Origin: Planctomycetaceae bacterium
GTDB lineage: Bacteria; Planctomycetota; Planctomycetia; Pirellulales; Pirellulaceae
NCBI GenBank assembly: GCA_947463915.1
Contig: CANHVO010000004.1
Span: forward strand, 2,022 to 66,021
Direction: 5' to 3'
Length of the DNA stretch: 64,000 nt
The stretch's first letter is position 1. Each line of letters starts with the position of its first letter. Of this stretch, positions 6,772-30,051 are shown in pieces. A program made the position numbers and the translations under genes. The notes beneath the pieces are model-generated. The model worked only from the letters and a program-made list of their open reading frames with translations. It was not told the DNA's origin and did no database searches.

Positions 6772-7011
6772 ATGCAATCTCCAAACGAACCGGAAGAAGA
6801 AACCATCGAATTGGATCAGTTTCTCAAGCTGGCTGAAGTAACGCAGTCGGGTGGCCAAGCGAAACACCTTATTCAGTCCGGTGGAGTTCTGGTGAACGGC
6901 GTAGTGGAAACACGCCGGGGGAAAAAACTTCGCCCCGGAGATCGGATTTTTGTCGGTGGCGAGGAGTTCGTCGTCGGCTCAGATTCCGACGACGAAGAGT
7001 TTGAGTCCTAA
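6772..7011 (+). CDS. S4-domain RNA-binding protein (YaaA/YbcJ family)
   Basis: IELDQFLKLAEVTQSGGQAKHLIQSGGVLVNGVVETRRGKKLRPGD. Confidence 0.92.
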   Translation: MQSPNEPEEETIELDQFLKLAEVTQSGGQAKHLIQSGGVLVNGVVETRRGKKLRPGDRIFVGGEEFVVGSDSDDEEFES

Positions 7012-7093
7012 GGCGTTCGGCCAAATGGAAATTTCATAGCAAGTCGTGCTCCTGCAAAAAACCGGAATTTCCATTCGGTTTTTGATGAGACTA

Positions 7094-7258
7094 TTTAGCC
7101 GAAAAAAACGAAAAGAACCGAAAAAAGAGACGTTGGAACAAATGGGTTCGCTTTAGTCAAAGGCTCGCCGCTACTGACTAGTCTGAGGACCAACGAAAAT
7201 AAAGACTCAACGAAGCATCAATTCGATTTTTTTGGCTTCTTTCGCTTTTTTCGGCAAA
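7094..7258. repeat. MITE-like element with about 30-bp imperfect A-rich terminal inverted repeats
   Basis: gccgaaaaaaacgaaaagaaccgaaaaaa pairs with ttttttggcttctttcgcttttttcggc, between convergent genes. Confidence 0.55.
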
Positions 7259-7344
7259 AAGGAAGATGCTTAAGACGTTTGTCCCTCGGTCTAGGTCTCT
7301 GCCGGCGGAGACCTCGTCGCTCGCCTAACTCACATTGAATCGAC

Positions 7345-8352
7345 TTATCTCACAAGTGTTTCGCTGGCCTTTCCGTCGAGCAATCGTTCCACTTCTTGTC
7401 TAGAAATCAAAGGCAAGTCGCCCGGAATGCTGTATTTCAGGCGAGCTGTTGCGGTTGCCCACTGAAGCGATCTCCGCAAATCTTGCTTTTCCAACCAGGC
7501 GGAAAGAAACCCGGCCGAAAACGAATCGCCTCCGCCAAGCCGACCAATCGGTTCGACGGGTTCAATCGATTTTGTTTCGCAATGGTTCGCATCGCTCGCC
7601 ATGGCACCGCGCGTTCCTAGTGTCATGACAGTTGGTCGGCCTGACCGCATCGCTACCAGTTGCGACATTGCACGTTCGTCGCTCAATTCTCCACTGATGC
7701 CCCATAGATTGTTGGCATCTCGTCGAGGCAAAAATACGAGGTCCGCAGATTCGAACAGGGACTCACTGTATTGCATCGCCTGTTTGGCACTACAAAGCAG
7801 CGATCGATGGTTTACGTCAAAACTAATTTGCCAACCCACCGATCTTGCCCGCTTTACCGCGTCTGCGACCGTTGCTCGTACCGAATCGCTCAGCCACAGC
7901 GAAATGCCTGTAATGTGCAACCACTTGGAATTCAGAGGAGCAAATAGGTCTGATGGTAAATCGCTTGGCTGGATTTTTGAAAAGGCAGAATTCGCACGAT
8001 CGTAAATCACCTGGCTGTTTCTGGGTGGAGTGCCCGCTTCTAAGAAATACAACCCGACGCGGTCGTTGTTCGTCCATACAACATGCCTGGTGCAGACTCC
8101 ATGCGCGGCGATTGCCCGTTCGACTTTTCTCCCCAAGTGGTTGTCGGTCATCCTGGATAACCATGCGACTCGTTTCCCAAGTCGTGAGAGACCGACGGCT
8201 GTGTTCGACTCGCTCCCGCCGACATGCACTTGTAAACTTTCAGCTTGCTCTAGGCGAAGATTGCTATCTGGGGTCAATCGCAGCATTGTTTCGCCCAAAG
8301 TGACGACATCCCACTGTGTTTCCGAAGATTGATTGTTGGGTGTTGAATTCAT
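7345..8352 (-). CDS. kdgK: PfkB-family sugar kinase, probably 2-keto-3-deoxygluconate kinase
   Basis: GGSESNTAVGLSRLG and GGGDSFSAGF PfkB signatures; ATGA-coupled to eda. Confidence 0.8.
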   Translation of the reverse strand: MNSTPNNQSSETQWDVVTLGETMLRLTPDSNLRLEQAESLQVHVGGSESNTAVGLSRLGKRVAWLSRMTDNHLGRKVERAIAAHGVCTRHVVWTNNDRVGLYFLEAGTPPRNSQVIYDRANSAFSKIQPSDLPSDLFAPLNSKWLHITGISLWLSDSVRATVADAVKRARSVGWQISFDVNHRSLLCSAKQAMQYSESLFESADLVFLPRRDANNLWGISGELSDERAMSQLVAMRSGRPTVMTLGTRGAMASDANHCETKSIEPVEPIGRLGGGDSFSAGFLSAWLEKQDLRRSLQWATATARLKYSIPGDLPLISRQEVERLLDGKASETLVR

Positions 8353-8999
8353 GCTGCATTGCGATCCAATTGGCTGGCTTTCACATATTCAGAAGCGGTT
8401 TGGATTAGTTTGTTCCAATCCTTGTTTTGAATGGCGATCGGATCAAGCAATTGGCTACCAATACCGACGGCTACTGCTCCGGCTGCAAAAAAGGTCGCTA
8501 TGTTCTTTAAGTCAACGCCGCCTGTCGGCATGAGTTTTAAGTACGGCATGGGAGCCAGCACATCTTTGATATAGCCCGCCCCCAAAGTTCTTGCGGGAAA
8601 CACTTTCACGATATCGGCCCCAGCATCCCAGCACGTTGCAATTTCGGTTGGGGTGTAAGCTCCCGGGCAGACCGCAACTTTGTTTTGCTTGCAGTAATCG
8701 ATAATCTGAACAGAGGTAATGGGCGAGACTACAAATTGTGCTCCACTATCGATCGCAAGCTTCGCTTCTTCGAGCGAACGAACAGAGCCTATGCCGACGA
8801 CCGCTTTTTGGGACGTAATCGCTTGGTGGGTATCTCTCATTTTTCGGACCACAGCTGGTGCGGCTGCATTTGTCAGTGTGAACTCGAGAGCCCGAACGCC
8901 CGCCTGAAACAATGCGTTGGTGATCGGAAGTGCCGTCGATAGGTCATCCAACCTAAGAATAGCGACTAGGCGGGCGTCGAGGATTGTTTCAATGGTCAT
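8349..8999 (-). CDS. eda: KDPG/KHG aldolase
   Basis: LVAILR, ALEFTL, GAQFVVSP, PGAYTPTEI, VKVFPA and LMPTGGV motifs. Likely start ATG 8999; the ORF track extends to 9143. Confidence 0.92.
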   Translation of the reverse strand: MTIETILDARLVAILRLDDLSTALPITNALFQAGVRALEFTLTNAAAPAVVRKMRDTHQAITSQKAVVGIGSVRSLEEAKLAIDSGAQFVVSPITSVQIIDYCKQNKVAVCPGAYTPTEIATCWDAGADIVKVFPARTLGAGYIKDVLAPMPYLKLMPTGGVDLKNIATFFAAGAVAVGIGSQLLDPIAIQNKDWNKLIQTASEYVKASQLDRNAA

Positions 9000-9171
9000 C
9001 GTTGCGATCAGGTTCCTGTCGGCCGAATAGCTAGCGAAAGAAGTTGGAAAGATTTGCTGATTGTATCGATTGTACCGGCCGATACAGAACAGCAGAAGGA
9101 CGGTTTGCTCCAGGTCGGGGCGACGAATCCGTTTGTTTTGCATGCCAGCAATTCTTCAGGGGCGCATTGTT

Positions 9172-9909
9172 ATGAAAACTGCATTGTTCGGATGGCTATT
9201 TGGATTTGGACTGTTGATAAGCCATGTCGGCTGCTGCTCCGTTCGTTTTGTTGGCGATGGCTGCGGCATGGGAGCATGCGGTGACATTGATTGCGAAGTA
9301 GGAGGCTGCGGCAGTTTGCGTTCACGAGTTGCCAATCGAATTCGAAGCGCCCATTGCAGCTCGGGTTGCGGGGAAATTTACTGGGACGAACACATTAACG
9401 AGCCACCCGTGTGCGATCCTTGCGGCTGCAATGGTGAGTTTGAGTGCGGATCGTGCGGTAGCTGCCCAACGGCGCTCGGGCGTTTGAAAAACTTGTGGGG
9501 ATATCGATACATGCCCTCCAGTTGCGGCGAATGCAATTCATGCGGATTGACTTCGAATCACGGCGGCTCAAGCTCGTGCGCAACATGCGCCAGCAACACG
9601 CAATCTTCCTACTCTTCGAATGATCACATGTCGTCGCACAGCGAAATGATGTCATCTGAGCCAGTTGAGAATTCGGTGATAAAGCGTTCCCCAACCCCAG
9701 CCAAACCGAAACAAGCCCCCGCTCCTAGCGTTGCTCCTAAACCAACTCCCGATGCCAATGCGATGCATATGGAGGAGGTTTCGACGGAACGACTTGTCAT
9801 CGGAAGCGGCGCATCGAAAACTAGGAAAACGACAACGGCTAGACCTGTCTCGACCAGTTTGAAGCCGTCCGGCCAAGGTAAGCCAAGGCTGGTAACCAAC
9901 CCTCGCTAA
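9172..9909 (+). CDS. Cys/Gly-rich exported protein, possible lipoprotein
   Basis: Signal-like N-terminus ending HVGC; 19 Cys in residues 21-139; Ser/Pro/Lys-rich tail. Likely start ATG 9172. Confidence 0.7.
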   Translation: MKTALFGWLFGFGLLISHVGCCSVRFVGDGCGMGACGDIDCEVGGCGSLRSRVANRIRSAHCSSGCGEIYWDEHINEPPVCDPCGCNGEFECGSCGSCPTALGRLKNLWGYRYMPSSCGECNSCGLTSNHGGSSSCATCASNTQSSYSSNDHMSSHSEMMSSEPVENSVIKRSPTPAKPKQAPAPSVAPKPTPDANAMHMEEVSTERLVIGSGASKTRKTTTARPVSTSLKPSGQGKPRLVTNPR

Positions 9910-22388: not shown

Positions 22389-23234
22389 ATGAGTTACCTG
22401 CGACATTGGAAATTGTCTCGTTCCCCGTTTGCATTGGGTCCCTCCAGTCGCGGCGTGTTTTGTGGTGGGACAATCGAGGAAGCGTTCGCACGGAGCGAGT
22501 TTCTTGTTTCCCAAGAAAAGCGACTGGCAATCGTTTTGGGGCCCGCTGGGGTGGGGAAAACGACGTTTCTGAGGCATTTTGTTCGCTTGCGAAATGCTCA
22601 ATACGCGCGAGAGAACCTCGCCATGATCGACCTCCGCTCGGCCGATGCGGACATCGTTCCCCTAAGGATTTTGCAAGGTATTGCGCCACATCAAGAACCG
22701 CCGCACTCTTCGAGAGAATGTTGGACTCAGATTAGCGACGAGTTGTTTTCGGAATCAGCAATTGGCCATCGCACGGTTTTAATCCTGGACAATCTGCATG
22801 AGGTCTCGGATGATTTTTACCAGGCAATTTCACACTTGTGGAGCACTCCTATCCGCTGGAGCATGTTTCTGTCGCTCGACGACGATTCTATTGTCAATAT
22901 TCCCAGATGGATCTTGGACCAATGCGAACTCAAAATTCAATTGCCGCGTTGGGATCTCGGACAAACAGCGGACTACTTTGATTTTGCAATTCAAGGGGTG
23001 GGAGGCGATGATTCCATATTCAACGGTCAAGCGATCACTCGGATTCAGGAACTTAGTGACGGAATCCCACGAAAAATTGTTCAAATCGCTGAATTGGCCT
23101 TGGTTGCAGGGGCGGTTCGAAAGGCAGAAAAAGTCACGGCAGAGCTGGTTGACCAAGTTTGCGACGAGTTTACTGTCACCGTTGGAACGAAATTCTCCCC
23201 AATCTGGGAAGATCAGAGATTGAATGCTGGATAA
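22389..23234 (+). CDS. ExeA/GspA-like AAA ATPase
   Basis: YLRHWKLSRSPF N-terminus, Walker A GPAGVGKT, Walker B LILDN, GIPRKI motif. Confidence 0.8.
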   Translation: MSYLRHWKLSRSPFALGPSSRGVFCGGTIEEAFARSEFLVSQEKRLAIVLGPAGVGKTTFLRHFVRLRNAQYARENLAMIDLRSADADIVPLRILQGIAPHQEPPHSSRECWTQISDELFSESAIGHRTVLILDNLHEVSDDFYQAISHLWSTPIRWSMFLSLDDDSIVNIPRWILDQCELKIQLPRWDLGQTADYFDFAIQGVGGDDSIFNGQAITRIQELSDGIPRKIVQIAELALVAGAVRKAEKVTAELVDQVCDEFTVTVGTKFSPIWEDQRLNAG

Positions 23235-24100: not shown

Positions 24101-24583
24101 CTATTGGTCGATTGGCTCGTTGTTGTTGTTTCCGACCGTACCAGCGGCAACCAGGTAGGCTTTGTTCTCATGGTCAAGTGTCATGGATGACAACATGTCA
24201 GTGTTTGCCAGAAACATGGGCTTCAACCATGAGTTGTCGGAATACTTGCATCGAATCTCTACCGTGACAGTCGAGGTGGACGTAGTAAAAGTAGTCGGAG
24301 TCACGGTGATGGTCGCATTGCGAACTCCTGTCGCATTCAAGATCTGATTCGCTTTGGCTGTTACTTCGGCCACGGTCTTGCCTGGAACGATCCCTACTCG
24401 GGCTGACTCATAGGCCGCTTGCTCGACGGAGTGACGCGCGTACATGAAGCGAGCGAACTCGAAGCCAGCCAGAAGAATCGTAAAAAACACTCCGCTGCAA
24501 ATGGCGAAATCAATAGTGAATGCTCCCAAACGGCGTACGCATTTCGGCGAAACTCTACGTCCTGTGGTTTCTCTTGAATTCAT
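24101..24583 (-). CDS. TadE-like minor pilin
   Basis: RRLG|AFTIDF class III signal-like N-terminus (Asp at +5); AAYESARVG motif. Confidence 0.82.
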   Translation of the reverse strand: MNSRETTGRRVSPKCVRRLGAFTIDFAICSGVFFTILLAGFEFARFMYARHSVEQAAYESARVGIVPGKTVAEVTAKANQILNATGVRNATITVTPTTFTTSTSTVTVEIRCKYSDNSWLKPMFLANTDMLSSMTLDHENKAYLVAAGTVGNNNNEPIDQ

Positions 24584-24586
24584 GAT

Positions 24587-25789
24587 TTACTCGGTCAACA
24601 TGTTGGGTAGCGTGGCAGCGATAGTACGAAAGGCCGCTTCCAAGGATGCAGCATCGGGGGCGACATAGCATTGGCCACCGCCAGCTTGTGCGACGCGTTG
24701 CATCAATGCGACATCCGCTTGCGCACTAAATGCGATGGTATGGGTTCGAATATTCATTTCACGGGCCGTTGTGGCCAACACAACTGGATCGTCGCCTTGG
24801 GATAGAATTCCGTCTGTGAGCAAAATAATGCTCTTGCAGGAAGTGATCCGAGTTCGAGTCGGATCCGTCAAAGCGTTTACTCCCTCGCGAAGACCGGCTG
24901 CGATGTTGGTGTTTCCGATGAGAGGTTGCGTTGCAAGCGTGTTCAGCTTTTGTTTGAGCGTGGTGTAGTCGGTTGTCAGTGGTTGATCGATGGAGGCAAC
25001 AACGGATGTCCAAATCCCAAAGGTAAAGTTGCTCGAATAGGAGGCCAAGGCAACTCGGGACTTGATGGGAGCCTCGTTGAGAACGTTGGCAAAGATATTG
25101 ACCGATGAAGTCAGCGCAGCCCAGCGACTCGATGTAGCGTGGGGCAACTGAAAATAGTTTTGAATGGGAGACTTGCCTGCCAAATCACCTGGATAAGAAA
25201 AAGGCGTCGAGCCTAGTGTCCAAGCCATTGAGCCAGAGCGATCGACCACCAAGCATACGTCCATGTCGATTCGAGTTGAAACGGCGGACTGTTCGGAAGT
25301 GAAGGTCGAGACACCCATCAACTGCGGAATCAAGATGGTTGGGATCCCGCCACCAGCCATTTTGCTCAAGTTCGAATTGATACGAACGGAATTCGTAACG
25401 ACACTCGAAGCCGACGCCGTCTGAGAAAACGAATAGGAACCATTTGCGTTCCCGATCGAAGCCCCGATCTGAATGTCGCTGTCGTCCAAGACAACAACTC
25501 GACCGGCGACGCGATGCAAAGCCGCAATCGACTTAGCCGCTTGCCTGGCCTGATCCTGCGATTGTGTTTGGCCAAGTACGACGAGTGCTGCCTTGGCGGC
25601 TGCATCGGTCGCAAGCCTTTGTTCCGAACGCACGAGCTCCATGTACGCAATATTGATACTGAGCCCAGCCAACGCAACCAAAGCGAAAAAGGCCGCTCCT
25701 GAAAGGACCAGAATGGAGCCTCGGCGCTTCCGAGACCTTCTTGTGCGTTGGGATCGGTGAAGCGTAGGACAGGGAATCGGTTTGTTCAT
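24587..25789 (-). CDS. TadG-like pseudopilin with vWA domain
   Basis: RRG|SILVL, AATDAAAKAA-like motif (RLATDAAAKAA), MIDAS DRSGSM, TNIAAG, LLTDG. Confidence 0.88.
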   Translation of the reverse strand: MNKPIPCPTLHRSQRTRRSRKRRGSILVLSGAAFFALVALAGLSINIAYMELVRSEQRLATDAAAKAALVVLGQTQSQDQARQAAKSIAALHRVAGRVVVLDDSDIQIGASIGNANGSYSFSQTASASSVVTNSVRINSNLSKMAGGGIPTILIPQLMGVSTFTSEQSAVSTRIDMDVCLVVDRSGSMAWTLGSTPFSYPGDLAGKSPIQNYFQLPHATSSRWAALTSSVNIFANVLNEAPIKSRVALASYSSNFTFGIWTSVVASIDQPLTTDYTTLKQKLNTLATQPLIGNTNIAAGLREGVNALTDPTRTRITSCKSIILLTDGILSQGDDPVVLATTAREMNIRTHTIAFSAQADVALMQRVAQAGGGQCYVAPDAASLEAAFRTIAATLPNMLTE

Positions 25790-25800
25790 TTTGTAACCTT

Positions 25801-26223
25801 CTATTCACGAAGCATGTATGCGTCGACAGAAATGGTTCCTTGATCTTGCAGGACGAATCGTGTGGGAGAATTAGAAGCCCAGGGGACTTCAATTCGAACC
25901 CGAATCTGCGTTCCGGATGGTTGAGACAGCAAGTCCGCAGGCGTTACCGTGACGACGGCTCCCTTGACATTGCGTTGAGTCAACATCGCTTGGCAGCGTG
26001 TCGTAACATCCATACTGCTGCAGGTACTTCGTACCGCTGATCTTGCTCCTTCGTAGGCAACGAGGACCGCAGATTGACGGAGGAATATCCTTTGACAGAC
26101 TTCAATCGTTCCCAAAATGAGGATCAGCATCACTGGCAATACAAATGCCAACTCAATCGAAGCCAAACCGTCACGTCGGTTCGATTGTCTGTTACTCTTT
26201 TGATTTTTTGGTGAAGCGGTCAT
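25801..26223 (-). CDS. TadE-like minor pilin
   Basis: RRDG|LASIE (Glu at +5), LVAYEGAR motif. Confidence 0.88.
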   Translation of the reverse strand: MTASPKNQKSNRQSNRRDGLASIELAFVLPVMLILILGTIEVCQRIFLRQSAVLVAYEGARSAVRSTCSSMDVTTRCQAMLTQRNVKGAVVTVTPADLLSQPSGTQIRVRIEVPWASNSPTRFVLQDQGTISVDAYMLRE

Positions 26224-26264
26224 GGTTGGGGTTTTCTAAACGCAATTACGACTATCAACTTAAA

Positions 26265-27047
26265 TCACTGTGGCAGACTCGACGGGTCATCCGTCAGTGA
26301 GTTTGCATTCACCATACCGATATCCACCACGAACAGAGCATCGTTGTAGTCCAAGTCACCACCACCGACGATGTCTTCGAATCCGATCAATAGGTACGGT
26401 GAGTCGGGCATCGCAAACGCGACAACGTGTTGTAGCCGATCGCTGTTCTTCGACGAATCATTCCATAGCCAAGCAAGGTTTGTGTTGGTTTGCCCGGAAT
26501 CTCGCCACTTGTTGAATGCGTCCGATATAAGAAAGAAGTCCAACTGCCAGCCGTTACCACCCTTGCCCAGGTCCACAAAGTCGCCGGCGCGAAGAGGATC
26601 ATTCACTGTACGACTTCCACTTCCGATAGAGGCATTAGGGAAAATGACTTTGGGCGAGCCAGGCGTGGCACTACCCGCTGGTGTAAACGCAAATCCTAAT
26701 GTGTTCCGATAGCCTGCACCTTCGGCCAGGAAGTAAACGCGAATCGTCTCAACAGCTTCCTGACGCAAGAAGAGTTTGGCCGAGTCGAGCTTGAATCCCG
26801 TAGCGTTCGTGAAGACGACACTCTCTTGCAGGTTGTTGTTGATAATGGTTTGGAATTTTGGAAGCCACTGGCTATTGAAAGCCGCTGCTCGGGAGTCCGA
26901 ACCTGTTACTTCGACGTTGCCGATGACCGGTAAATTGAGCGGGACCGGTGTTGCCTGTGGGCTGGCTGGAGTACCTGCAAGGGCAATCCCGCTTGAAACC
27001 CAAAGCAAAAGCCCAAAGGCGGACAAGTTGTGTTTCGAAAGTCCCAT
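26265..27047 (-). CDS. Secreted DUF4114-domain protein
   Basis: VYFLAEGAGYRNTLGF and LIGFEDIVGGGDLDYNDALFVVD motifs; signal peptide from ATG 27047 with GAGGTG SD. The ORF track starts at 27179. Confidence 0.78.
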   Translation of the reverse strand: MGLSKHNLSAFGLLLWVSSGIALAGTPASPQATPVPLNLPVIGNVEVTGSDSRAAAFNSQWLPKFQTIINNNLQESVVFTNATGFKLDSAKLFLRQEAVETIRVYFLAEGAGYRNTLGFAFTPAGSATPGSPKVIFPNASIGSGSRTVNDPLRAGDFVDLGKGGNGWQLDFFLISDAFNKWRDSGQTNTNLAWLWNDSSKNSDRLQHVVAFAMPDSPYLLIGFEDIVGGGDLDYNDALFVVDIGMVNANSLTDDPSSLPQ

Positions 27048-27277
27048 CAATGCACCTCGTGAAGCAAGCTTAAAGTCGATAACATGAGAAGCCCCATGCC
27101 AGTTCCTTTCTGAACGGTAGCTTTGTTTCTTTCCGAAAAGTGCGACAGCTTCGAACCTTTTCGCGAATCCCATGCACAAAAGGTGAGGAAGGTAATGATT
27201 AATCTGTGGTTACCCGCTGCGAATATCTTTCGCAAACCGCAAAATCGTTAAGCTTCGATTCAAGTAATTCAAGTAAA

Positions 27278-27330: not shown

Positions 27331-27581
27331 TTGAAGTGCAAATACCAAGGTTGGGTTCTGAATTAATTCACATCAAAAGTTCTGCTCGTCACAGGAAGCA
27401 AGCCCTGCGGGAGGTACGCAATCACCGACCTCAAAATCGTCACAACCGTTTCTTTTTGTGTTAACGGGAGCATATATCCCAAAGCCAGCCCTATCTTCAA
27501 TGACAGGTGCAAAACGGCGCACTAACTTTTTAAGGCCATTTTACTTTTGATACATCATTGATTCTGAGTTTTGAGCTGGGA

Positions 27582-29414
27582 ATGACTGTCCGACAATTAA
27601 AGCCAACCGACATCAGCTTCACCAAAGTGGCTGATTGTTTCGTTGCCGAGTTGCGGAATGGCAATTCCCCCTCCATTGAGTCCTTTGCTACAGCCTTCCC
27701 ACACTTAAAAAACGACATTCGGGCAAATTTTCCCGCGTTGCTCATGCTCGAAAAAAATGTCTCGAAGAAAGGCGACCGTCCGGATACGCTCGTCGAGAAA
27801 GTCCTAGGCAATTGCCTTGTCCAAGAAGAGATTGGACGAGGTGCCATGGGGATCGTCTATCGAGGATACCAACAGGAATTGGATCGCGTGGTAGCGATCA
27901 AGACAATTCCTTTGGATGAAATGGCAAGCTTCGGTGTGGTTCAGCGTTTCGAACTTGAGCGACGCGCTATGGCGAAATTGGATCACACCAATATCGTTCC
28001 TGTCTACGAGTATGGTTACAACGAAGATCACGCGTATCTCGTGATGAAGTACATCGACGGTCATAGTCTGGACAAAATCTTATGCCCAGAAGCACAATAC
28101 CGTCTCAAAGTACTACTGGCTGAACTGCAAACCGACTGGAAGTCCTTTGCCGAATTAGGGATGCAAGTCGCATCGGGCTTGCAACATGCTCACGAACAAG
28201 GCTTGGTTCACCGAGATATCAAGCCTGCCAATCTTTTGTTCGACAACGCTCGAAAAATATGGATTACTGACTTCGGTCTTGCAAAAGCGTTTGATCACAA
28301 TCGTTCTCTGAGTCGCACAGGTGACGCGATCGGCACGCCTCGGTACATGGCCCCTGAGCAGCTTCGCGGGCATTGCGATTGCAGAAGCGACGTTTACTCA
28401 CTGGGGATCACGCTTTATGAGCTCGCAACGGGTAGTCGAGCTTGGCGGGACAGTTCGCTGGAAGCGCTAACAATACACCGAGAAAAGCTCAAGCTGAATA
28501 GCATCCTCGACGAAAACCCGGACATACCAGATGGGCTCGCCAAGATCATTATGAAGGCATGCGCGTTTGCGCCCGAGGACCGTTACCAGACAGCGAAGGA
28601 ACTGCAGTATGTCCTCGAGCGATTCGCTTCAGGAATCGCGCCAAGTGACCGAAGACGAAAACGACGTGAACCCGATGATATCTACCGCAGGCGTAGCAAA
28701 CGGACGGCTACAATGCTTGTCGCGTCTGCCATCGGGATTCTCATGTTTAGCGTGGTTTTTTCAATCGCTTTCAGGCGCCAGTCTGGCGATTCTCAAGCAC
28801 AAGCACAGACGCCCAAGATCCTCCCTAGCGGCGAGAATTTCATTGAAGCTCTTGGAGATCCGAAATCTGGAGACCTTGGACTCGCCTTGACCAAACTGGT
28901 CAAGGATTCCATTGAAAATTCGAGCAGTCAGTTTCGTCTTGAGGACGGTGACAAAAACCAGATTCTAAACAGCACCGAGGAACTGCTGTCGCGCATCAAG
29001 AATCGAGACCTCAGCGGAAAATCCTTCAATTCCTTTTTGGAAGGATACCGGGAATCTTCGCTGCCAGCCGGCACCCAGATTATGAGCTTGGTTCGATTCG
29101 TCGAACGTTCTAAATTCAAGCCTCGTGAAGTTGAAATGGCTTACGATACGCTTCGTGGATTCGCAAAGCTGGTTGTGAATAGAGAGATACCGGAGCAAGA
29201 AGCGTACTCCATGATAGCCATCCTAACTGGCGGCAAAGTGCTCTCGGCGGCTGAGTTGGCTCAATACAACGTTTCCGACGAAAAGCTATTTCAATGGCTC
29301 ATGATGGTTCGAAACCGAATCTCTCGTGCTCCGGCACAGGCTCTACAAGGAAAAATGAACATCGCAACAGAGATCGAACGCGCGCTGCGAAACCCACCCA
29401 AAGGCGATCGATAA
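27582..29414 (+). CDS. Membrane Ser/Thr protein kinase, co-transcribed with an ECF sigma factor
   Basis: IGRGAMGIVY, VAIK, HRDIKPAN, DFG, GTPRYMAPE; TM MLVASAIGILMFSVVFSIAF. Alternative TTG start at 27558. Confidence 0.93.
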   Translation: MTVRQLKPTDISFTKVADCFVAELRNGNSPSIESFATAFPHLKNDIRANFPALLMLEKNVSKKGDRPDTLVEKVLGNCLVQEEIGRGAMGIVYRGYQQELDRVVAIKTIPLDEMASFGVVQRFELERRAMAKLDHTNIVPVYEYGYNEDHAYLVMKYIDGHSLDKILCPEAQYRLKVLLAELQTDWKSFAELGMQVASGLQHAHEQGLVHRDIKPANLLFDNARKIWITDFGLAKAFDHNRSLSRTGDAIGTPRYMAPEQLRGHCDCRSDVYSLGITLYELATGSRAWRDSSLEALTIHREKLKLNSILDENPDIPDGLAKIIMKACAFAPEDRYQTAKELQYVLERFASGIAPSDRRRKRREPDDIYRRRSKRTATMLVASAIGILMFSVVFSIAFRRQSGDSQAQAQTPKILPSGENFIEALGDPKSGDLGLALTKLVKDSIENSSSQFRLEDGDKNQILNSTEELLSRIKNRDLSGKSFNSFLEGYRESSLPAGTQIMSLVRFVERSKFKPREVEMAYDTLRGFAKLVVNREIPEQEAYSMIAILTGGKVLSAAELAQYNVSDEKLFQWLMMVRNRISRAPAQALQGKMNIATEIERALRNPPKGDR

Positions 29415-29433
29415 TCCCTTCGAAGGCACTACT

Positions 29434-30051
29434 ATGAATACACTGCAAACAGACTCGAGTTCAGCACGTTTGCTAGATTTACTCAAGCAAGGTGGCGGCC
29501 GAGAATTAACAGCTCTGTTCATGCGTTCGCGCAGCCACATCCGAAGACTGGTTGAGTCTCGCCTCGACAAACGTCTGCTGGCACGAGTCGACGCGTCGGA
29601 TATCGTTCAAGAAACGTTTCTTCGTGCGACAGCAAGTATGGACGCTTATCTGAAGTCACCAAAAGTTCCCCCAATTGTCTGGCTTCGCCTAATCGGAAAG
29701 CACATCGTGGCCGAGACGCACCGGCGCCATTTTCGCGAAAAGCGTAGCCCTGAGCGTGAGAACAATTGGTATCAAGACGGAGACGATGTACTCAGCCAAA
29801 AGCTGATCGACTCCATGCACTCTGTCGGCACTTGGATGGCTCGACGGGAGCTGGCGTTAAAGGTGCAAGACGCGATCAAGAATTTATCCGACCAAGATCG
29901 TGAAATCATCGAGATGAGACACTTAGAGGAACTCTCGATCAAGGAATCGGCAATGGTCCTAGAATTAAATATCGAGACAACCAAGAAGCGATACTATCGC
30001 GCTCTCACCCGTTTTCGAGAGCTGGTCGCGGACATCCTACCGAACGAGTAA
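29434..30051 (+). CDS. ECF sigma-70 factor, planctomycete TIGR02984-like
   Basis: RLDKRLLARVDASDIVQETF in region 2; LSDQDREIIEMRHLEELS in region 4. Confidence 0.9.
   Translation: MNTLQTDSSSARLLDLLKQGGGRELTALFMRSRSHIRRLVESRLDKRLLARVDASDIVQETFLRATASMDAYLKSPKVPPIVWLRLIGKHIVAETHRRHFREKRSPERENNWYQDGDDVLSQKLIDSMHSVGTWMARRELALKVQDAIKNLSDQDREIIEMRHLEELSIKESAMVLELNIETTKKRYYRALTRFRELVADILPNE

Follow-up and report, generated by a model that had tools for sequence, protein, structure and literature searches.

Few bacterial adhesion organelles are as widespread as Tad (tight adherence, or type IVc) pili, and we asked what a predicted exported lectin is doing in one tight row with three Tad minor-pilin genes, on a contig that holds none of the genes for building such a pilus. 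The row lies in the window, by which we mean the whole stretch of 64,000 nucleotides analysed here (positions 2022-66021 of the 70,431-bp contig CANHVO010000004.1, or C4, from the 7.6-Mb, 618-contig assembly GCA_947463915.1 of a Planctomycetaceae bacterium, which its relatives put with Pirellula/Pirellulaceae, a freshwater planctomycete). On the minus strand, to which all window coordinates below refer unless a plus is given, it begins with the gene for a DUF4114 protein (26265-27047, 260 aa from its ATG), followed by a triad made up of TadE1 (25801-26223, 140 aa), a TadE-type minor pilin, TadG (24587-25789, 400 aa), a large minor pilin of the TadG/CpaL type, and TadE2 (24101-24583, 160 aa), a second TadE-type minor pilin. 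The open reading frames (ORFs) bear out the initial annotation of this DNA, which had described four co-directional genes with gaps of 41, 11 and 3 bp and had taken them for a pilus-tip or adhesin module. Our reading is that this cassette may be a self-contained adhesion module for a Tad pilus carrying the DUF4114 lectin on its tip, and we give it about even credence.

The cassette recurs well beyond the window. We found 518 DUF4114 homologues in a large protein collection, and a scan of one genome per species gave 80 loci. DUF4114-TadE-TadG-TadE stands in the same order in 38 loci other than the window, and in several more the contig stops after TadE or TadG. With the same order in 38 other loci, the arrangement lies far beyond chance. 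The comparison also places the limits of the module at the four genes, with conserved order inside and variable flanks outside, which agrees with the earlier view of them as one module. A maximum-likelihood tree of 84 DUF4114 homologues was divided into two clades with support of 97/98. Clade 1, the triad-linked one, comprises 46 rows, all from Pirellulales or Planctomycetales, and in 44 of these rows (43 with the label 'triad', and the locus L073) a Tad minor-pilin gene comes next. DUF4114 is thus conserved beside Tad triads, a point on which the initial annotation had staked its proposal. TadE-TadG-TadE is complete in 38 clade-1 rows and the rest of the 44 are cut by contig ends. The two rows without a following Tad gene are L010, which ends with its contig, and L024 (5844-6684), the sole clade-1 copy that has no triad. 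In L024 the DUF4114 gene is split or frameshifted into two overlapping ORFs with an altered tail (...LYPY), and a gene resembling glycyl-tRNA synthetase comes after it; L024 is likely a decaying copy or an error in a metagenome-assembled genome (MAG). Branch lengths inside clade 1 exceed one change per site, and the DUF4114 gene has been kept with its triad since before the Pirellulales-Planctomycetales divergence. Clade 2 holds 38 rows, mostly from Verrucomicrobiota, with Lentisphaerota, a few other Planctomycetota, Pseudomonadota, Thermodesulfobacteriota and Cyanobacteriota, and a Tad gene stands beside DUF4114 in none of the 38.

The two clades also end differently. Clade-1 proteins all finish in hydrophobic-Pro-X and have no hydrophobic tail, the last three residues being LPQ, LPN, LPH, LPR, LPK, LPD, MPR or YPN. 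Nearly all 38 clade-2 proteins carry a PEP motif, a transmembrane stretch and an Arg/Lys cluster, the exception being an aberrant extra copy (L068_1). In the window protein the conserved L-P-Q end is encoded at 26268-26276; its P259 belongs to an invariant column in which the PEP motif has its first Pro, and in the alignment the triad-linked proteins stop one residue past that Pro. The window protein (...SSLPQ) does not have the combination of PEP motif, transmembrane helix and basic tail by which PEP-CTERM proteins are recognized. Because the terminal Pro of clade 1 shares its column with the first Pro of PEP, the triad-linked proteins resemble PEP-CTERM lectins that have been cut short within the motif. 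We considered loss of exosortase sorting as the cause of the anchor loss and rejected it, since at least five PEP-CTERM-type tails are still encoded in the window genome.

We then asked what kind of protein the DUF4114 gene encodes. Pfam DUF4114 (PF13448; 41 bits, cut-off 27) is the only Pfam match in its 260 residues. The reading frame stays open upstream of the ATG as far as a TTG at 27179, and the ATG is backed by the length of most homologues (250-266 aa). The protein begins with a putative Sec-type signal peptide, MGLSKHNLSAFGLLLWVSSGIALAG (26973-27047), read from the sequence and accompanied by low values of the predicted local distance difference test (pLDDT) over the first ~20 residues, and it ends in ...DDPSSLPQ without a hydrophobic anchor; both ends are as the initial annotation had described them. 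An AlphaFold2 model built on a 72-sequence alignment reached a mean pLDDT of 88.8 and a predicted template-modelling score (pTM) of 0.86, and shows a beta-sandwich against which a long helix (52-72) is packed. Foldseek against the PDB placed the lectins BclA and BC2L-A and the C-terminal lectin domain of BC2L-C at the top (probability 0.85-0.96, E 1.4e-3 to 8e-3). These LecB-family matches have template-modelling (TM) scores of 0.41-0.49 on the target and are the sole PDB matches at a probability above 0.8.

The LecB loop supplies the ligands of LecB's two calcium ions. A profile search against PDB sequences aligned FEDxxGGGDLDYNDxxFVVD of the DUF4114 protein to this loop, SEDGTDNDYNDAVVVIN, with a weak E of 0.12. 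The alignment of the acidic stretch E224-D225-IVGGG-D231-L-D233-Y-N235-D236 (26340-26378) with the LecB sequence E-D-G-T-D-N-D-Y-N-D marks a putative double-calcium loop. Over the 72 sequences, E224, D225, D231, D233 and D236 of this loop do not vary, and conservation of Y234 and N235 is at least 90%. With the confident model, the LecB-family matches and the conserved loop, the earlier idea of a ligand-binding protein has gained ground, and the window protein is predicted to resemble the LecB/BclA-like calcium-lectin fold. Published work on DUF4114 fits a candidate sugar-binding role: in Acanthamoeba MBP-1, the beta-sandwich formed by DUF4114 binds to mannose resin as well as to host cells (PMC11934332), and a mutation of the DUF4114 calcium site in Myxococcus PilY1.1 abolishes colony-level twitching while the pili still extend and retract (PMC9109919). 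The C-terminal beta-propeller of PilY1 is not among the Pfam matches of the window protein, which are limited to PF13448. Because it has no beta-propeller, the protein is not taken to be a PilY1 homologue, and by analogy it may work in a PilY1-like way. DUF4114 modules occur in other settings as well. In a separate family of 730-790 aa (P0187, P0196, P0209 and ~20 others) the whole ~250-aa module stands N-terminal, with tetratricopeptide (TPR) repeats after it in some members, and in giant 1,900-aa proteins it is joined to right-handed beta-helix repeats.

Next, we compared pilin motifs over 39 cassettes, namely the window's and those of the 38 orthologous loci. TadE1 and TadE2 match Pfam TadE (PF07811) at 42.6 and 47.2 bits, with a cut-off of 22.9. 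The TadE1 leader reads RRDG/LASIE (...RRDG/LASIELAF; the slash stands between positions -1 and +1), with R17 (-3), E24 (+5) and P30 (+11) in 39/39 orthologues and G19 in 35/39. For TadE2 the leader is RRLG/AFTID (...RRLG/AFTIDFAI); Gly is found at -1 in 38/39 cassettes and Glu at +5 in 38/39, and Asp occupies +5 in the window alone (GAT, 24509-24511). The L001 and L002 cassettes have Glu here though their DUF4114 proteins are 94% identical to the window's, and we read the Asp as a private conservative change of the window and not as a family feature. The TadG leader, RRG/SILVL, has Leu and not Glu at +5, a position held by Leu, Phe or Ile in 39/39 cassettes and by an acidic residue in 0/39. 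The initial annotation had counted three prepilin-like N-termini, one of them with Asp; this stands for the two TadE proteins, but TadG is not equivalent to them.

The 400-aa protein gives 60 bits with Pfam VWA (von Willebrand factor A domain, vWA) and 16.8 bits with the TadE/G-like N-terminal family PF13400, below the cut-off of 22.3. Five of eight TadG orthologues pass PF13400 (26.7-42.6 bits), and one of these loci, L075, also passes Tad_C (PF09977). On the strength of these orthologue matches, the protein is assigned by homology to the TadG/CpaL-type large minor pilins. Its metal ion-dependent adhesion site (MIDAS), D183-R-S185-G-S187 (25229-25243) with T294 and D326, is intact as first described, and D183, S185, S187, T294 and D326 are invariant in 39/39 orthologues. 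A model of the TadG of locus L005 shows a long N-terminal helix, a small beta domain and then a Rossmann-type vWA domain, a plan like that of CpaL. Foldseek matches of the vWA domain include BatB, the pilus-tip adhesin SpaC and CMG2. A PDB sequence search with TadG gave one marginal and uninformative match, to the uncharacterised protein 3rag (E 0.0088). A short terminal strand is predicted in the L005 TadG, but from residue 787 onward, in the numbering of the surrogate chain described below, pLDDT is under 50. In TadG-type proteins a C-terminal beta-strand completes the sheet of the pilin domain, and in other type IV filaments the apical subunit (PilK/GspK) is marked by the lack of Glu5 (PMC13533445). 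In sequence, then, the two TadE proteins and TadG carry features of a tip or initiation complex, and TadG has no Glu at +5, as would be expected of an apical subunit.

Two observations concern the ends and the borders of these proteins. TadG finishes in ...A-T-L-P-N-M-L-T-E (24587-24610), with Pro395 invariant and Leu394 nearly so, and the DUF4114 proteins finish in ...S-[ST]-L-P-[NQH] (26268-26279 in the window); the T/S-L-P-N/Q motif common to both ends may be due to chance or may mark a common contact site. In L073, a Pirellulales MAG locus, a single 586-aa ORF (6774-8534) has a TadE-type N-terminus that runs into TadG; either the two genes are naturally fused or the frame or the ORF was miscalled.

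We next determined where the remaining Tad genes of this organism lie. Whole-genome profile scans returned no match to Flp, T2SSE, T2SSF or secretin on contig C4 (70,431 bp), nor does this contig hold a complete tad locus with flp, cpaA/tadV, rcpA/cpaC, tadA/cpaF and tadB/C adjacent; the initial annotation had said the same of the window for Flp, TadA/B/C and secretin. The genome encodes 15 TadE domains in about ten minor-pilin cassettes, and its three DUF4114 genes, on C4, C223 and C35, each stand directly upstream of one. Set against these are three Flp genes, one cpaF-tadB-tadC unit, 14 T2SSE ATPases and 12 secretin matches. One of the flp genes, on C128, has beside it a peptidase A24 gene (63 bits) that is a candidate for the TadV/CpaA-type prepilin peptidase. 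The core genes are scattered over contigs C128, C17, C14, C252 and elsewhere, none of them on a cassette contig. The contig end C35:30456-31626 carries DUF4114 and a TadE1-type gene of which just the N-terminal half is present, and C430:3755-5895, once reverse-complemented, contains the C-terminal half of such a gene, then a TadE and a TadG. These are probably two sides of one assembly gap, and if so the third cassette would run DUF4114-TadE-TadE-TadG and not E-G-E.

The term 'orphan' in the initial annotation is therefore overstated: the cassette is unlinked to the core, but this is nothing special, as all TadE/TadG genes of the genome are unlinked to a scattered core, and the orphan state is normal for the Tad minor-pilin genes of this organism. 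That the machinery is encoded elsewhere holds in related genomes too. In the closed genome of SH501 (Pirellulaceae) the cassette lies at 6.597-6.600 Mb, with the nearest T2SSE ATPase ~0.2 Mb and the CpaF orthologue more than 2 Mb away, and in Botrimarina colliarenosi it lies ~113 kb from a flp-cpaF locus on the same contig. In two cultured relatives, SH501 and, by coordinates, SH467, a flp gene is found ~3.5 kb beyond TadE2, with an epimerase gene, a small gene and a gene for a 634-aa AAA ATPase between. In SH501 (locus L081) this Flp gene (DEAG/ATAIEYAV) is at 7176-7511 (-) and the divergent ATPase gene at 7684-9588 (+). The nearby flp speaks, if modestly, for a connection with Flp pili. In each of the 15 cassette-bearing genomes examined there is a CpaF orthologue (71-100% identity) together with two or more Flp genes, which is consistent with the proposal, but such genes may be universal in the group.

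Taken as a mechanism, the proposal would work as follows. The triad would be assembled in the inner membrane, where the two TadE proteins would be trimmed by the CpaA-type peptidase encoded beside flp. The TadE pair and the apical TadG would form an initiation or tip complex that primes a Flp filament; the CpaF-TadB-TadC machine, encoded at an unlinked site, would drive this filament, and a secretin would be the way out of the cell. In the periplasm the anchorless DUF4114 lectin would bind the triad before extrusion and be carried out on the tip, as PilY1 is on type IVa pili, and the resulting tip would have two binding activities, the vWA/MIDAS and a calcium-dependent sugar site. The ancestor of the lectin may have been a PEP-CTERM-anchored surface protein that lost its membrane tail, so that the pilus tip would have taken over from exosortase sorting in bringing it to the surface. 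With DUF4114 in three of the roughly ten triad cassettes, the cell would then have alternative tips.

To look for contact between the DUF4114 protein and the triad, we used as a surrogate the L005 locus, in which the DUF4114 protein is 86% identical to the window's and the four genes lie in one frame. The read-through chain, with Gly in place of the stops, has 957 aa and was folded with partly paired orthologous rows. Its four domains are confident (mean pLDDT 80.7, pTM 0.57), and as a model it neither supports nor refutes docking. Several points weigh against a lectin on a Tad tip. The DUF4114 tail of the surrogate (chain residues 228-267) and the linkers have a pLDDT below 50, and the tail is not confidently docked. 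Among ten of the longer proteins from the best 150 of 4,149 representatives, we found no fusion of a DUF4114 module to a pilin, TadG or PilY1 domain, the fusions seen being with TPR and beta-helix only. In sequence the protein is only weakly similar to LecB (E 0.12), and in fold the similarity is moderate (TM 0.43-0.49 on the target, E ~1e-3). Planctomycetes have many other ATPases and secretins like those of type II secretion systems (T2SS) and type IV pili, so that the partner machine is not certain, and in SH501 a second triad stands beside two T2SSE-type ATPases. Finally, because clade 1 is monophyletic, the triad linkage arose once and the contrast between PEP-CTERM anchor and triad is a single historical event; the evidential weight lies in how long both the linkage and the Pro-X end have been retained.

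A tail that is not confidently docked would suit a cargo as well as a tip subunit, as would a protein that is Sec-exported, soluble and anchorless. In that case a Tad- or T2SS-like machine would build a short pseudopilus, capped by the triad, to push the DUF4114 lectin through a secretin, after which the lectin would be released or would adhere to polysaccharide of the same cell. The tip complexes of T2SS (GspK-I-J) are structurally related to minor-pilin tips (PMC13533445), and the 14 T2SSE ATPases and 12 secretin matches could include such a machine. We nevertheless consider secretion quite unlikely, given that T2SS substrates do not usually come one-to-one with a private minor-pilin set, whereas here each DUF4114 paralogue keeps its own triad, and that the adhesin-type vWA/MIDAS module of TadG has no obvious use in a piston. 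It is also unlikely that the genes are linked for co-expression alone, with the lectin reaching the envelope or matrix by another route and binding polysaccharide there while the triad forms an independent vWA-bearing tip. The surrogate and the fusion scan, which show no lectin-triad interaction, are in line with this, and so are the many unrelated architectures in which DUF4114 modules occur (PEP-CTERM proteins, TPR proteins, beta-helix giants). However, planctomycete pathway genes, the organism's own tad genes among them, are typically dispersed, so that strict synteny of four genes over two orders would be unusual; moreover, the loss of the PEP-CTERM anchor coincides exactly with the gain of the triad, the sole copy without a triad is decayed, and an anchorless periplasmic protein would still need a route across the outer membrane.

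A role away from any filament can be imagined, in which the triad is a periplasmic complex anchored in the inner membrane by its pilin-like helices, with its vWA domain used as in BatA/BatB, and the DUF4114 protein is the partner of this complex in the periplasm, working on envelope glycans or taking part in sensing. BatB aerotolerance proteins are among the best structural matches of the vWA domain, TadG without Glu at +5 may escape processing, and the cassette is unlinked to assembly genes. This sits poorly with the two TadE proteins, which keep a prepilin signature (Gly at -1 in 35-38/39, Glu at +5 in 38-39/39) that is relevant solely to peptidase processing and filament packing, with the matches of TadG orthologues to Tad and Tad_C families, and with the TadG/CpaL homologues that proved to be tip or initiation subunits where tested (PMC13533445, PMC11870444); we judge it very improbable. 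For the lectin-tipped pilus we hold, more tentatively and with some doubt, a fuller hypothesis for Planctomycetia. Their Tad pili may use a non-pilin tip adhesin supplied in trans, a functional analogue of PilY1 derived from an exosortase-sorted surface lectin that was cut within its PEP motif and captured by the triad; the Pro-X end of this adhesin would dock on TadG or TadE, and cells would choose among several lectin-bearing and lectin-free tips.

Comparison with known systems places the cassette near several described tips. The Kil (Tad-like) pilus of Myxococcus xanthus has the tip clusters KilL/KilM/KilN and Tip1-4 (Herrou et al. 2025, PMC12075869). Like the genome studied here, whose several paralogous cassettes are in line with the interchangeable module of the initial annotation, it has several paralogous TadE/TadF/TadG-type triads, some away from the core, which were proposed to be interchangeable tips whose large subunit exposes a variable domain (PMC12075869). 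Unlike our cassette, Kil tips consist of three pilin-like subunits with no separate non-pilin partner, and the KilN domain is of unknown fold and not a vWA (PMC12075869). Kil profile hidden Markov models were reported to be restricted to Myxococcota (PMC12075869), whereas the window belongs to a non-predatory planctomycetotal lineage and has a fourth gene, for a Sec-exported lectin. CpaJ-CpaK-CpaL of Caulobacter crescentus likewise combine two small minor pilins with a large protein of pilin module, vWA and MIDAS, modelled at the tip (PMC11870444, PMC13533445), and SpaC is the top structural match of the CpaL vWA (PMC11870444) and among the top ones for the window-type TadG vWA. The published Caulobacter tip model differs in being without a lectin subunit and in the extra beta-rich domains inserted in the CpaL vWA.

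Other likenesses concern the DUF4114 protein itself. M. xanthus PilY1.1/PilY1.2 are Sec-exported non-pilins with DUF4114 and minor-pilin partners (Xue et al. 2022, PMC9109919; PMC13190605); the PilY1.1 calcium site is needed for polysaccharide-dependent motility, and PilY1 paralogues carry either vWA or DUF4114 (PMC9109919; PMC13190605). PilY1 proteins, however, exceed 1000 aa and dock on type IVa minor pilins by a C-terminal beta-propeller, whereas the window protein has 260 aa and Tad-type partners. In Streptococcus sanguinis, PilB (vWA) and the glycan-binding PilC join vWA/MIDAS and lectin modules on one tip, as in the tip proposed here (PMC11870444), but these modules are fused to pilin domains, whereas the window lectin is a separate non-pilin polypeptide. 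To LecB (PA-IIL), BclA and the C-terminal lectin domain of BC2L-C the window protein is linked by a beta-sandwich fold match (probability up to 0.96) and by the acidic residues E-D...D-x-D-Y-N-D, which in LecB form the loop that holds two calcium ions; it has twice the length, with an additional helix and strands at the N-terminus and three more residues in the loop, and the sequence similarity is non-significant (E 0.12). The PEP-CTERM DUF4114 proteins of Verrucomicrobiota, Lentisphaerota and others are full-length homologues with 35-45% identity and the same signal peptide but have PEP, a transmembrane helix and an Arg-rich tail and no adjacent Tad genes.

Unlinked paralogous TadE/F/G tip clusters, the vWA-bearing TadG/CpaL and DUF4114 on a pilus-tip adhesin (PilY1.1) have thus been published already. 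In the papers retrieved that mention DUF4114, and in those on Tad minor pilins that were listed or read, we found no description of a DUF4114 lectin that is Sec-exported as a polypeptide of its own and regularly makes up the fourth gene of a Tad minor-pilin cassette, no account of the conservation of this module across Pirellulales and Planctomycetales, and none of an origin from PEP-CTERM proteins by truncation in the sorting motif. The source of the binding specificity of Tad tips has been addressed only recently, with Kil tips and CpaL, and the specificity module has so far been placed within TadG itself. If our reading is true, a separately exported lectin subunit would be a second way to functionalise a Tad tip, parallel to PilY1 and to the vWA-lectin tip of S. 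sanguinis, and the switch from PEP-CTERM anchor to triad linkage would be a rare, datable case of a surface protein changing its display route. It predicts that lectin and triad bind each other, that the Pro-X end is involved in this binding, and that glycans are bound in a calcium-dependent manner. Planctomycetes attach to algae, particles and polysaccharide-rich surfaces, and the cassettes are candidate attachment determinants.

The genes around the module are common to same-genus relatives alone. They are a kinase-ECF (extracytoplasmic function) sigma factor pair upstream and DUF2203, AAA_22 and ABC-2 genes downstream. The divergent Ser/Thr kinase-ECF sigma pair (27558-30051) was considered as a regulator of the cassette and rejected, being present in L002 and absent in L001 and most other loci; in L001 a TerB-like gene stands immediately before the cassette in its place. 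Because the L001 and L002 cassettes are near-identical (DUF4114 94% to the window's) yet differ in the pair, it is a recent insertion or deletion beside the cassette and not a conserved regulator. DUF2203 and AAA_22 were likewise rejected as members of the module, as they are conserved within the genus only. A sigma-70 promoter scan returned no sites, and NCBIfam no matches for the DUF4114 or TadE proteins. The 634-aa ATPase of SH501 and the 281-aa AAA_22 ATPase of the window do not match each other at E <1e-5, and a link of AAA ATPases to the cassette is uncertain; the window gene lies at 22389-23234 (+), convergent with the cassette. In SH501 (1322909-1332393) a TadE pair (1.3308-1.3324 Mb) is found ~5 kb from two divergent T2SSE-type ATPase genes (1.3229-1.3255 Mb), and this arrangement may point to a second system like a type IV filament, supplied with separate minor pilins. 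The window genome has a comparable pair of ATPase genes at the start of contig C10 (C10:114-2685).

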